From: Escherichia coli
GTDB taxonomy: Bacteria > Pseudomonadota > Gammaproteobacteria > Enterobacterales > Enterobacteriaceae
Reading direction: 5' to 3' (one strand)
DNA: 64,000 nt
NCBI RefSeq assembly: GCF_044324875.1
Contig: NZ_CP172185.1
A program made the translations under genes and the position numbers. Below, piece after piece: positions 10,293 to 46,704 of this stretch (its first letter is position 1; each line of letters begins with the position of its first letter). Below the pieces are notes generated by a model. It saw only the letters and a program-made list of their open reading frames with translations, searched no databases and had not been told where the DNA came from.

Positions 10293-10634
10293 ATGATGAA
10301 AAAAAGTATTCTGGCGTTTCTGTTACTCACCAGTTCTGCAGCGGCGCTGGCGGCACCGCAGGTGATTACCGTCAGCCGTTTTGAAGTGGGTAAAGACAAA
10401 TGGGCGTTTAATCGCGAAGAGGTGATGCTGACTTGCCGACCGGGTAATGCTTTGTATGTCATCAACCCAAGTACCCTCGTGCAGTATCCTTTAAACGATA
10501 TCGCACAAAAGGAAGTTACCAGTGGGAAGACTAAAGCCCAGCCCATTTCGGTGATTCAGATTGATGATCCTAACAATCGCGGCGAAAAAATGAGTCTGGC
10601 ACCGTTTATAGAACGAGCTGAAAAACTCTGTTAA
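10293..10634 (+). CDS. yebY: Periplasmic protein YebY (DUF2511)
   Basis: 113 aa with signal peptide; third gene of the yobA-yebZ-yebY cluster. Confidence 0.8.
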
Positions 10635-10663
10635 TTACCTAAAATAACCTTTTGATTTCCAAT

Positions 10664-10706
10664 AAAAAAACCGCCTCAGTTCTTTCACCAGAACGGGCGG
10701 TTTTTA
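10664..10706. terminator. Intrinsic terminator after yebY (may also terminate antisense RyeA)
   Basis: accgcctcagttctttcaccagaacgggcggt stem followed by ttttt. Confidence 0.5.
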
Positions 10707-10792
10707 ACATTTAAGCTGATGACCACCGCGCTTTTTATTGACCATTTTGCACGCAAACTGGAAAACCTGGCGTCGTCATCTATTCTTAAAGG

Positions 10793-10895
10793 GCAAGGCA
10801 ACTAAGCCTGCATTAATGCCAACTTTTAGCGCACGGCTCTCTCCCAAGAGCCATTTCCCTGGACCGAATACAGGAATCGTGTTCGGTCTCTTTTT
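10793..10895 (+). ncRNA. sdsR: SdsR (RyeB) Hfq-dependent sRNA; antisense RyeA/SraC expected on the opposite strand across the same locus
   Basis: Recognised sequence GCAAGGCAACTAAGCCTGCATTAATGCCAACTTTTAGCGCACGGCTCTCTCCCAAGAGCCATTTCCCTGGACCGAATACAGGAATCGTGTTCGGTCTCTTTTT, ending in a terminator hairpin plus U-tract; located in the yebY-pphA intergenic region as in K-12. Confidence 0.7.
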
Positions 10896-11029
10896 ATCTG
10901 TTAAAAGCCAGAAGCATTCCCTTCGCTGACTTTATAGTCAACCATAACACACACTCTACTGTCTGAGTCCAGCGTTTTTTAACATTCTTGTTAAGATTAT
11001 GTGATCTTTAGCGCGGGAGGAAAATATTG

Positions 11030-11686
11030 ATGAAACAGCCTGCGCCCGTTTATCAGAGAATTGCGGGTCATCAATGGCGACATATCTGGCTTTCAGGCGA
11101 TATACACGGTTGTCTTGAGCAGTTGCGCCGCAAATTATGGCATTGTGGTTTTGATCCGTGGCGAGATTTACTTATCTCAGTGGGAGACGTTATCGATCGT
11201 GGGCCGCAAAGTTTACGTTGCCTGCAGTTACTGGAACAACATTGGGTTCGTGCGGTAAGAGGCAATCATGAACAGATGGCGATGGATGCGCTGGCATCCC
11301 AGCAGATGTCTTTATGGTTGATGAATGGCGGCGACTGGTTTATTGCGCTGGCAGATAATCAACAGAAACAAGCGAAAACGACGCTGGAAAAATGTCAGCA
11401 TTTGCCCTTTATTCTTGAAGTACACAGTCGCACCGGCAAACATGTTATTGCTCATGCCGATTATCCAGATGATGTTTATGAATGGCAAAAGGACGTTGAT
11501 TTGCATCAGGTCTTGTGGAGCCGCTCGCGATTAGGTGAACGCCAAAAAGGGCAGGGAATTACAGGTGCTGATCATTTCTGGTTTGGTCATACACCGTTGC
11601 GCCATCGCGTGGATATTGGCAACCTGCATTATATTGATACAGGTGCTGTCTTTGGGGGCGAACTGACTGTTGTGCAATTGCAATAA
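11030..11686 (+). CDS. pphA: Serine/threonine protein phosphatase 1
   Basis: 218 aa from MKQPAPVYQRIAGHQWRHIWLSGDIHGC; GDxHG and GNHE metallophosphatase motifs. Confidence 0.85.
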   Translation: MKQPAPVYQRIAGHQWRHIWLSGDIHGCLEQLRRKLWHCGFDPWRDLLISVGDVIDRGPQSLRCLQLLEQHWVRAVRGNHEQMAMDALASQQMSLWLMNGGDWFIALADNQQKQAKTTLEKCQHLPFILEVHSRTGKHVIAHADYPDDVYEWQKDVDLHQVLWSRSRLGERQKGQGITGADHFWFGHTPLRHRVDIGNLHYIDTGAVFGGELTVVQLQ

Positions 11687-22352: not shown

Positions 22353-23068
22353 TGCACAGAAAACCCCCAGCTAGGCTGGGGGTTCCGGAAAGCTTTCAGC
22401 TTTGAGCCAGTTATTAAAACCCCTTTTGATTTGTTAAAACACCTTGCGGTCTGGCAACTGCAAGTGTCAAACAAGTGTCAAACAAGAAATCAAAAGGGGG
22501 TCCCAATGGGGAACGAAAAGAGCTTAGCGCACACCCGATGGAACTGTAAATATCACATAGTATTTGCGCCAAAATACCGAAGACAGGTGTTCTACAGAGA
22601 GAAGCGTAGAGCAATAGGCTGTATTTTGAGAAAGCTGTGTGAGTGGAAAAGTGTACGGATTCTGGAAGCTGAATGCTGTGCAGATCATATCCATATGCTT
22701 GTGGAGATCCCGCCCAAAATGAGCGTATCAGGCTTTATGGGATATCTGAAAGGGAAAAGCAGTCTGATGCTTTACGAGCAGTTTGGTGATTTGAAATTCA
22801 AATACAGGAACAGGGAGTTCTGGTGCAGAGGGTATTACGTCGATACGGTGGGTAAGAACACGGCGAAGATACAGGATTACATAAAGCACCAGCTTGAAGA
22901 GGATAAAATGGGAGAGCAGTTATCGATTCCCTATCCGGGCAGCCCGTTTACGGGCCGTAAGTAACGAAGTTGGATGCAAATGTCAGATCGTGTGCGCCTG
23001 TTAGGGCGCGGCTGGTAAGAGAGCCTTATAGGCGCATTTGAAAAACCTCCGGCTATGCCGGAGGATAT
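22353..23068 (+). mobile_element. IS200-like insertion sequence (about 0.7 kb; boundaries approximate)
   Basis: Contains an IS200-type tnpA; 5' region has a perfect hairpin (cccccagc-tagg-gctggggg, 22364-22382) and a long stem pairing ccccttttgatttgtt with aacaagaaatcaaaaggggg that would sequester the RBS; inserted between the htpX terminator and the yebQ stop. Confidence 0.6.
22506..22964 (+). CDS. tnpA: IS200 TnpA (HUH Y1 transposase)
   Basis: 152 aa from MGNEKSLAHTRWNCKYHIVFAPKYRRQVFY; HUH motif DHIHMLVEIPPK; near-identical to Salmonella IS200 TnpA as I recall it. Confidence 0.88.
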   Translation: MGNEKSLAHTRWNCKYHIVFAPKYRRQVFYREKRRAIGCILRKLCEWKSVRILEAECCADHIHMLVEIPPKMSVSGFMGYLKGKSSLMLYEQFGDLKFKYRNREFWCRGYYVDTVGKNTAKIQDYIKHQLEEDKMGEQLSIPYPGSPFTGRK

Positions 23069-26460: not shown

Positions 26461-27129
26461 TCCTTCCTCAATCTTGAGTAACCCCGTCGTTGAAGGGTTA
26501 CTCAATTCATCCTGATTATACGCACTGTCATGGTGCAACTGCTTCAAATTAAAACTCTGGTCTGACTTCAAATAATTATCATATTATTTATTTGCGTAAC
26601 GGGATATCAGAAAAAGATATTTAGCCCATTAATTTATTAGGATGTTTACATCGGATTTGTGATTAAGCGTGGTATTATTTATTAGCGAAACGTTTCTCTC
26701 TTGATTTTTTTGCGCATTTATCAATTTTTCTTATTTTAAATTTACAATACCTTTGGCGATTGACTTCTCTTTGGGGTGATCTATAGCCGTTAACTGACTG
26801 TTTTATGAGAAAAAGTGATATAACTTTTTATTCATTGCATAGCAGAAAATGTGATATTGCACGCACTATGTAATAACTTCTCCCACTGGCCTGGAACAAC
26901 TGAACTTATTGAACTATGTTAGAAAATACGTCAGTTTAAGTATCTGCCTGAACTGGCAAGGTTAAGCACAATGATATATCGGCGCGTATTCCGTTGCATA
27001 AGTGTGCAAAAAAAGTGGAAGACGTATCGAGATTTGTGCGTCTGATCGAGACATGTTTAAAAATGGCTTGCCATAATTAACGTTGTATGTGATAACAGAT
27101 TTCGGGTTAAACGAGGTACAGTTCTGTTT

Positions 27130-27273
27130 ATGTGTGGCATTTTCAGTAAAGAAGTCCTGAGTAAACACGTTGACGTTGAATACCGCTTCTCTGCCGAGCC
27201 TTATATTGGTGCCTCATGCAGTAATGTGTCAGTTTTATCTATGTTATGCCTGCGGGCGAAGAAAACAATCTAA
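27130..27273 (+). CDS. yobF: Small protein YobF (47 aa; missed by the ORF track)
   Basis: ATG at 27130; translation [47 protein letters not shown]; ends 12 bp before cspC. Confidence 0.75.
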
Positions 27274-27285
27274 GGAATTTTTCAA

Positions 27286-27495
27286 ATGGCAAAGATTAAA
27301 GGTCAGGTTAAGTGGTTCAACGAGTCTAAAGGTTTTGGCTTCATTACTCCGGCTGATGGCAGCAAAGACGTGTTCGTACACTTCTCTGCTATCCAGGGTA
27401 ATGGCTTCAAAACTCTGGCTGAAGGTCAGAACGTTGAGTTCGAAATTCAGGACGGTCAGAAAGGTCCGGCAGCTGTTAACGTAACAGCTATCTGA
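27286..27495 (+). CDS. cspC: Cold-shock-domain protein CspC
   Basis: 69 aa [40 protein letters not shown]1/RNP2 motifs. Confidence 0.93.
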
Positions 27496-27660
27496 TCGAA
27501 TCCACTGATCTGAAGTGTGAATACGCTTCAATCTCGCTATAAAGCCTCGTCGAATGCGAGGCTTTTTACTTTGCTTTATCTTCGCTCCAGTCGTTCGGAT
27601 ATTTGCCCGCCGCGTGATTCGCGTTACACTTGCGGCCTTTAGTGTCCTGCCGGAGTTGTC

Positions 27661-44973: not shown

Positions 44974-46659
44974 TTGAAGAAGGTTTGGCTTAACCGTTAT
45001 CCCGCGGACGTTCCGACGGAGATCAACCCTGACCGTTATCAATCTCTGGTAGATATGTTTGAGCAGTCGGTCGCGCGCTACGCCGATCAGCCTGCGTTTG
45101 TGAATATGGGGGAGGTGATGACCTTCCGCAAGCTGGAAGAACGCAGTCGCGCGTTTGCCGCTTATTTGCAACAAGGGTTGGGGCTGAAGAAAGGCGATCG
45201 CGTTGCGTTGATGATGCCTAATTTATTGCAATATCCGGTGGCGCTGTTTGGCATTTTGCGTGCCGGGATGATTGTCGTAAACGTTAACCCGTTGTATACC
45301 CCGCGTGAACTTGAGCATCAGCTTAACGATAGCGGCGCATCGGCGATTGTTATCGTGTCTAACTTTGCCCACACTCTGGAAAAAGTGGTTGATAAAACCG
45401 CCGTTCAGCACGTAATTCTGACCCGTATGGGCGATCAGCTATCTACGGCAAAAGGCACGGTAGTCAATTTCGTTGTTAAATACATCAAGCGTCTGGTGCC
45501 GAAATACCATCTGCCAGATGCCATTTCATTTCGTAGCGCCCTGCACAACGGCTACCGGATGCAGTACGTCAAACCCGAACTGGTGCCGGAAGATTTAGCT
45601 TTCCTGCAATACACCGGCGGCACCACAGGTGTGGCGAAAGGCGCGATGCTGACTCACCGCAATATGCTGGCGAACCTGGAACAGGTTAACGCGACCTATG
45701 GTCCGCTGTTGCATCCGGGCAAAGAGCTGGTGGTGACGGCGCTGCCGCTGTATCACATTTTTGCACTGACCATTAACTGCCTGCTGTTTATCGAACTGGG
45801 TGGGCAGAACCTGCTTATCACTAACCCGCGCGATATTCCAGGGTTGGTAAAAGAGTTAGCGAAATATCCGTTTACCGCTATCACTGGCGTTAACACCTTG
45901 TTCAATGCGTTGCTGAACAATAAAGAGTTCCAGCAGCTGGATTTCTCCAGTCTGCATCTTTCCGCAGGCGGAGGGATGCCTGTTCAGCAAGTGGTGGCAG
46001 AACGTTGGGTGAAACTGACTGGACAGTATCTGCTGGAAGGTTATGGCCTGACCGAGTGTGCGCCGCTGGTCAGCGTTAACCCGTATGATATTGATTATCA
46101 TAGTGGTAGCATCGGTTTGCCGGTGCCGTCGACGGAAGCCAAACTGGTGGATGACGACGACAACGAAGTACCACCGGGTCAACCGGGTGAGCTTTGTGTC
46201 AAAGGACCGCAGGTGATGCTGGGTTACTGGCAGCGTCCGGATGCTACCGATGAGATCATCAAAAATGGCTGGTTACACACCGGCGACATCGCGGTGATGG
46301 ATGAAGAAGGATTCCTGCGCATTGTCGATCGTAAAAAAGACATGATTCTGGTTTCCGGTTTTAACGTCTATCCCAACGAGATTGAAGATGTCGTCATGCA
46401 GCATCCTGGAGTACAGGAAGTCGCGGCTGTTGGCGTACCTTCCGGCTCCAGTGGTGAAGCGGTGAAAATCTTCGTAGTGAAAAAAGATCCATCGCTTACC
46501 GAAGAGTCACTGGTGACTTTTTGCCGCCGTCAGCTCACGGGCTACAAAGTACCGAAGCTGGTGGAGTTTCGTGATGAGTTACCGAAATCTAACGTCGGAA
46601 AAATTTTGCGACGAGAATTACGTGACGAAGCGCGCGGCAAAGTGGACAATAAAGCCTGA
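44974..46659 (+). CDS. fadD: Long-chain fatty acyl-CoA synthetase
   Basis: 561 aa from a TTG start ([25 protein letters not shown]); AMP-binding motif [11 protein letters not shown]. Confidence 0.92.
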
Positions 46660-46678
46660 GCGTTAAGTCAGTCGTCAG

Positions 46679-46704
46679 ACGCCGGTTAATCCGGCGTTTT
46701 TTTT
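46679..46704 (+). terminator. Intrinsic terminator after fadD
   Basis: cgccgg-ttaat-ccggcg followed by tttttttt. Confidence 0.55.

Follow-up and report, generated by a model that had tools for sequence, protein, structure and literature searches.

The 64,000-nt stretch of Escherichia coli DNA analyzed here, referred to as the window, carries between positions 10,635 and 11,029 the standard, uninterrupted form of the E. coli sdsR/ryeA locus, and we consider this identification, together with a mechanism carried over from K-12 and Salmonella, to be close to certain (probability about 0.96). SdsR/RyeA is an already known, textbook pair of small RNAs, which in this strain is intact and unremarkable; we regard the locus as ordinary because it is intact and essentially identical to that of K-12. 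An overlapping sRNA pair between yebY and pphA had been proposed in the initial annotation, and was confirmed by Rfam models and by mapping of the K-12 genes. The elements of the locus, in window coordinates, are as follows.

10293-10634, plus strand: yebY, the upstream flank of sdsR, on the same strand.
10666-10705, both strands: bidirectional intrinsic terminator common to yebY (plus strand, followed by TTTTT) and RyeA (minus strand, followed by UUUUUUU).
10933-10662, minus strand: RyeA (SraC), an sRNA of ~270 nt antisense to all of SdsR, placed by aligning K-12 b4432.
10759-10792, plus strand: sdsR promoter of sigma-S type, read from the sequence against the criteria of PMC3333887 and the Choi 2019 primer.
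10793-10895, plus strand: SdsR (RyeB), a sigma-S-dependent, Hfq-associated, trans-acting sRNA of ~100 nt, placed by RF00111, K-12 identity and the published start.
10861-10895, plus strand: SdsR intrinsic terminator, with an 11-bp stem, a 7-nt loop and a U-tract.
10896-11029, plus strand: sdsR-pphA spacer, reached by read-through from the sdsR promoter; its minus strand holds the RyeA 5' segment and the ryeA promoter.
10971-10941, minus strand: ryeA sigma-70 promoter, with the -10 taken from the Choi 2019 primer and putative TGn and -35 elements.
11030-11686, plus strand: pphA (phosphoprotein phosphatase 1), which follows sdsR and is co-transcribed with it according to PMC6610125.

The models for both sRNA families, a comparison that had been suggested beforehand, matched far above their gathering scores; the result named in advance as refuting the pair, lack of a significant match to the SdsR family, did not arise. 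RF00111 (SdsR_RyeB) aligned to 10796-10895 on the plus strand over positions 1-100 of its 100 (114.4 bits against a cut-off of 38; E 1.8e-21 in the 64-kb window), and the K-12 sdsR annotation mapped to 10792-10895 (+), 104 nt, with 0 mismatches; the full-length match and the mismatch-free mapping upheld the placement of SdsR at 10793-10895 on this strand. The start at 10793 coincides with the site mapped in K-12 by primer extension and 5' RACE, which lies 1 nt downstream of the older annotation, and SdsR 3' ends fall at +100 to +102 in K-12 (Choi 2019; PMC6610125). The resulting length is 103-104 nt, and both the conserved single-stranded region and the terminator are present. The terminator, likewise named in the initial annotation, was found independently as a hairpin at 10861-10889 followed by a T-run; it folded at -15.8 kcal/mol (z -3.7) and was also picked up by a generic scan. 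In K-12 it is leaky, allowing read-through into pphA (PMC6610125). The fold of the full SdsR (-34.8 kcal/mol, z -4.4) was better than those of all 200 shuffles, and the minimum-free-energy structure reproduced the central and terminator helices, with the 5' hairpin in an extended form. As to gene order, SdsR (from 10793) follows yebY (to 10634) on the same strand, and PMC3333887 states that sdsR lies downstream of yebY.

A generic promoter scan detected neither the sdsR nor the ryeA promoter, returning only a chance-level site at 10618-10645, and both promoters were therefore placed from published mutagenesis primers. Upstream of sdsR, a -35 element TGGAAA (10759-10764) is separated by a 16-nt spacer from the -10 hexamer TATTCT (10781-10786), which is intact in the window and is the hexamer that the Choi 2019 mutagenesis primer replaces by CTCGAG (PMC6610125). 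Sigma-S selectivity has been associated with C at -13, G/T at -14, C at -8, an A/T-rich discriminator and a 16-bp spacer (PMC3333887); all five features are present here, with T at -14 and C at -13 (10779-10780), C at -8, and a discriminator that begins with the A/T-rich TAA. The ryeA promoter sits ~140 bp downstream of the sdsR promoter and is convergent with it. Its -10 hexamer TATGGT, at 10946 to 10941 on the minus strand, is intact; primer PM_RyeAF of Choi 2019 changes the corresponding plus-strand ACCATA to CTCGAG, a mutation that abolishes RyeA in K-12 (PMC6610125). A TGT directly precedes this hexamer (10949 to 10947) and may act as an extended -10 (TGn) element. A clean -35 at 17-nt spacing was absent from the ryeA promoter, the sequence there being GACTCA; TGGACT (10971 to 10966), at a non-optimal 19-nt spacing, is a possible candidate.

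RyeA had been expected antisense across the same region, and it was located on the minus strand both by a match to RF00101 (SraC_RyeA) and by the K-12 gene. The match, at 10899-10755 (-), covers model positions 1-145 of 145 (175.1 bits against a cut-off of 37; E 2.9e-40), and K-12 ryeA maps to 10933-10662 (-), 272 nt, of which 269 are identical (98.9%). The two family matches are not independent, as the RyeA match consists, at 100 of its 145 positions, of the SdsR match in reverse complement; RF00101 also matched wherever SdsR_RyeB did, including Shewanella, Aeromonas and other genera, there only as the mirror of the SdsR match. We therefore rejected the RF00101 match as independent proof of RyeA, the model being mostly a mirror image of SdsR. 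Separate evidence for RyeA is, at the sequence level, its intact promoter, its intact terminator and its near-identity to the K-12 gene.

RyeA of K-12 begins chiefly at the annotated +1 (10933 here), with two minor starts 1-2 nt upstream, and its 3' ends lie at +261 to +270, corresponding to 10673 to 10664 (PMC6610125). The mapped K-12 gene thus spans all of sdsR and ends at the intrinsic terminator beside yebY. This hairpin (10666-10705) is identical to that of K-12 and folds strongly on both strands (plus strand -19.8 kcal/mol, z -6.9; minus strand -20.6 kcal/mol, z -5.0), which, with T-runs on both sides, led us to assign it to yebY and RyeA alike. A weak resemblance to the Listeria sRNA rliE at 10612-10717 (27 bits against a cut-off of 90) was discarded as merely this yebY/RyeA terminator hairpin. 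The whole RyeA folded at -87.8 kcal/mol (z -2.9), better than all 200 shuffles.

The interval 10700-10960 originally assigned to the pair was correctly placed and too short: RyeA reaches ~10662-10664 and the ryeA promoter region reaches ~10971, so that ~40 nt at the RyeA 3' end, the yebY/RyeA terminator and the upstream part of the ryeA promoter region fall outside the interval.

Comparison with the K-12 ryeA/sdsR locus, also suggested at the outset, bore out the identification, which no observation contradicted: the alignment had no indels, SdsR was identical and RyeA 98.9% identical. Over the whole of yebY-ryeA/sdsR-pphA (10293-11686), the window differed from K-12 by 0 indels and 25 substitutions in 1,394 nt, and the genes flanking K-12 sdsR (b4433) and ryeA (b4432), with their orientation, are the same. 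SdsR, both -10 hexamers defined by mutagenesis and both terminators carry no substitution. Three substitutions are confined to RyeA, none inside the SdsR overlap: 10713 and 10728, in the 3' part, and 10919 (RyeA +15), the last being the single difference in the sdsR-pphA spacer, which has no indels; none of the three is predicted to have an effect. At the start of pphA the ORF list gives TTG at 11027, whereas K-12 and PGAP give ATG at 11030, 5 nt after GGAGGAAAATAT.

The locus was found in 5,425 of 5,426 complete E. coli genomes, and a 431-nt stretch around sdsR/ryeA is 100% identical in many E. coli chromosomes. Disrupted alleles do exist: the yebY-pphA intergenic region is split in ~238 complete E. 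coli genomes. In E. coli FDAARGOS_944, an IS1A element inserted ~9 nt into SdsR (equivalent to ~10801) parts the sigma-S promoter and first bases from the rest of the gene, and in 228 genomes a prophage lies in the terminator. The window might thus hold a degenerate or disrupted copy that makes no functional RNAs; we give this virtually no credence, as the window is without an indel relative to K-12 from yebY to pphA, and SdsR, the -10 hexamers and the terminators are unsubstituted. Neither a prophage nor an IS insertion was found in the window, and the attachment site is empty.

Alternatively, the region might code for at least one small protein, its annotation as RNA being incomplete. Three candidate open reading frames exist:

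10738-10929, plus strand: candidate 63-aa ORF from the ORF list.
10801-10685, minus strand: candidate 38-aa ORF from the ORF list.
10745-10704, minus strand: candidate 13-codon ATG ORF (MVNKKRGGHQLKC) in the RyeA-specific 3' part.

In the last of these, the substitutions at 10713 and 10728, out of the three that separate RyeA from its K-12 counterpart, fall at third codon positions and are synonymous. However, its ATG motif occurred in just two E. coli-clade sequences, the second of which differs at 3 of 13 residues; the ORF was rejected because it was not found outside the E. coli clade and shows three non-synonymous changes in the second genome. The 63-aa ORF retained both start and stop codon in no more than 2-3 of 108 species, with lengths ranging from 0 to 113 aa, and was rejected as a protein for lack of conservation. 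The initial annotation had called the ORFs here spurious, which holds for the 63-aa ORF; most of the 38-aa ORF falls in sequence of low conservation. Visual inspection showed no evident ribosome-binding site, and the SdsR region is so uniformly conserved that codon periodicity is not readable in it. We consider a coding role highly improbable, and retain the reading of the locus as a pair of sRNAs.

Much of what the pair is expected to do in this strain comes from work on K-12 and Salmonella. In both, SdsR accumulates in stationary phase in an RpoS-dependent manner and associates with Hfq (PMC6610125, PMC3333887); for RyeA, a transcript of ~250-270 nt whose level is inverse to that of SdsR has been shown in K-12 only (PMC6610125, PMC3333887). 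Transcription depends on the sigma-S form of RNA polymerase for SdsR and on the sigma-70 form for RyeA (PMC6610125). By analogy with K-12, SdsR of this strain would be transcribed, depend on sigma-S, bind Hfq and be toxic. RyeA would be transcribed in growing cells and SdsR would accumulate on entry into stationary phase, acting in trans with Hfq, while RyeA would oppose it through mutual degradation and transcriptional interference. Since RyeA is complementary to SdsR over the whole SdsR length, the two would form a duplex, which RNase III may cleave, each RNA lowering the level of the other. When co-expressed, the two RNAs accelerate each other's decay, and mutation of the ryeA promoter brings SdsR on earlier (PMC6610125); the pair is also the top (most abundant) RNase III-cleaved double-stranded RNA cluster in stationary phase (PMC7373196). 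Transcription of ryeA would further lower both SdsR and the read-through sdsR-pphA mRNA. A dicistronic sdsR-pphA transcript has been shown in K-12, where the sdsR promoter and this mRNA are repressed by ryeA transcription and not by RyeA RNA, probably through polymerase collision (PMC6610125).

A scan for the SdsR core in one genome per species returned 120 loci. In nearly all Enterobacterales loci fetched yebY lies directly upstream, and among the loci scanned pphA is adjacent to sdsR only in E. coli and one Citrobacter. Across 89 Enterobacterales sequences, the SdsR body (10807-10895), the sdsR -35 block, parts of the -10 region (-13C and the TAT of the hexamer) and the TAA are at least 95% conserved, and the RyeA-only segments (10662-10757 and 10896-10933) mostly 10-50%. 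The ryeA promoter motifs AACCATAACA and GTCCAG are 40-80% conserved in Enterobacterales. Poor conservation of RyeA-specific sequence beyond close relatives is also reported in PMC3333887.

In 83 distinct sequences, 93.2% of cells in the SdsR helices were paired, as against 85.6% in shuffles (0 of 500 attained 93.2%) and no more than 48.5% after sliding of the partners. The terminator helix showed compensatory changes at 8 of its 11 pairs, with 97.8% of cells paired; the central helix was invariant, partly since the search pattern required it, and the 5' helix was weak (64.7% paired). Helix positions held 138 G·U cells, which pair only on the SdsR strand, and 35 A·C cells, which correspond to pairing only on the RyeA strand; the helices are thus maintained on the SdsR strand and frequently lost on that of RyeA. 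On the RyeA strand of the window, the counterpart of the SdsR terminator hairpin is weak (-11.1 kcal/mol, z -1.7). Conservation, covariation, the G·U excess and this weak hairpin together indicate that selection acts on SdsR.

The same imbalance raises the question of whether SdsR is the only RNA under selection, RyeA being without function as an RNA and either a tolerated antisense by-product or of importance just through transcriptional interference with the sdsR promoter and pphA read-through. The low conservation of the RyeA-only segments, the G·U excess and the weak RyeA-strand hairpin all point that way, as do the Choi 2019 finding that pphA repression requires ryeA transcription and not the RNA (PMC6610125), and the 228 E. 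coli genomes in which a prophage leaves the ryeA promoter with no more of sdsR than its last 31 nt. Frohlich 2012 took the same view, and loss of the sraC promoter gave merely ~1.5-fold more SdsR (PMC3333887). Against it stand the mutual degradation on co-expression and the earlier SdsR of the ryeA promoter mutant, the rank of the pair among RNase III-cleaved clusters, and a ryeA -10 motif that is recognizable in many Enterobacteriaceae genera. We judge selection on SdsR alone to be unlikely; it concerns emphasis and leaves the identity of the locus untouched.

SdsR_RyeB also passed its gathering score (48-87 bits) in Shewanella, Aeromonas, Aliidiomarina, Bowmanella and Paraglaciecola, and the family therefore extends well beyond Enterobacterales. 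In these genera the loci are without an upstream yebY, and the terminator stems are fully compensated.

The pair invites comparison with other systems. Salmonella SdsR/SraC belongs to the same family and resembles the window in its position downstream of yebY, in its sigma-S promoter features and in an antisense RNA that covers the whole gene (PMC3333887); its downstream neighbor is variable, and, unlike in the window, SraC of Salmonella and Shigella is ~35 nt longer with a -10 box further upstream (PMC3333887). A Campylobacter jejuni pair (PMC8687705) likewise consists of an sRNA with a cis-encoded antisense antagonist and undergoes RNase III processing. Its sequences and organism are unrelated to SdsR/RyeA. 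There, a trans-acting sRNA is reportedly opposed by an RNA from the opposite strand, with RNase III said to mature the sRNA rather than simply degrade it.

As in type I toxin-antitoxin loci such as hok/sok, an antisense RNA neutralizes a toxic product of the other strand (PMC8610362); the type I toxin is a small protein, whereas the SdsR "toxin" is an sRNA, and a conserved core regulator rather than an addiction module. Overexpressed SdsR is toxic in K-12 and RyeA relieves the toxicity (Choi 2018, as summarized in PMC6610125 and PMC8610362), which runs through repression of yhcB. Because the toxin is itself an sRNA, the pair has been called "type VIII", and reviewers place it as the first such RNA-RNA toxin-antitoxin system (PMC8610362). 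In the window, too, both partners are non-coding and lie on opposite strands of one locus. The label "antitoxin" for RyeA rests on overexpression experiments.

The insertions seen in other strains bear on this label. A tyrosine integrase abuts the SdsR 3' end in 228 of 5,426 complete E. coli genomes. In E. coli PV0838, the sdsR terminator holds a lambdoid prophage of ~49 kb with genes for an integrase, an excisionase, recET and the type III effector NleG7 (nleG7). At its attL, SdsR is complete with its last ~15 nt derived from the phage (GTATTCGGTCTTTTTTT); at attR, 31 nt from the 3' end of SdsR (equal to 10865-10895) remain beside an intact ryeA promoter. Comparison of attL and attR places the crossover core at ~10865-10880, which is likely the attB core for the lambdoid prophage family of other strains. 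From the structure of attR, the native ryeA promoter in such lysogens would yield antisense to the last 31 nt of SdsR only. In tRNA and tmRNA attachment sites, similarly, the prophage brings a replacement 3' end and the RNA gene is restored; unlike at tRNA genes, integration at sdsR would cut the antisense partner off from its promoter.

A second, short copy of the SdsR 3' end (…ATATTCGGTCTTTT) occurs 40-120 nt downstream of sdsR in many species, e.g. E. albertii, Citrobacter, Enterobacter, Serratia and Yersinia, often after CGAAA-type repeats; the window has none. These copies look like footprints of past integrations. A Salmonella precedent for insertions in the sdsR locus is cited in PMC3333887 (its ref. 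102). We tentatively suggest, with the odds somewhat against it, that the sdsR terminator of the window is an empty att site for the ~49-kb lambdoid prophage family, whose integration would rebuild SdsR and leave the ryeA promoter only its last 31 nt, making lysogens natural "antitoxin-less" strains.

Elsewhere in the window, three further Rfam matches were noted on the plus strand. A cspA thermoregulator match at 27110-27570 (139.3 bits, cut-off 78) is, going by map position, presumably the cspC region, which we take to lie ~16 kb from sdsR in K-12. An STnc490 Hfq-binding sRNA match at 22362-22496 (125.8 bits, cut-off 56) carries an 11-nt insertion relative to the model in its 3' helix, and sroD matched over its full length at 46618-46703 (115.2 bits, cut-off 50).

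Among the records examined, ryeA and sdsR are named only in the curated K-12 record, and PGAP-annotated E. coli records list no feature between yebY and pphA (10635-11029), both in the best 30 matches and in the full feature table of strain 118UI; hence both sRNAs appear to be unannotated in most E. coli genomes. Given this silence, recording an intact SdsR and RyeA here is useful, with little importance beyond annotation. What the locus specifies is SdsR, which as a core regulator of stationary phase controls genes of the envelope, efflux and mismatch repair, and its built-in antagonist, RyeA. The prophage lysogens would offer a natural experiment on whether RyeA is needed to restrain SdsR; if they are indeed cut off from RyeA as suggested, and both their SdsR and their growth are normal, reading the pair as a toxin-antitoxin system would be an overstatement.
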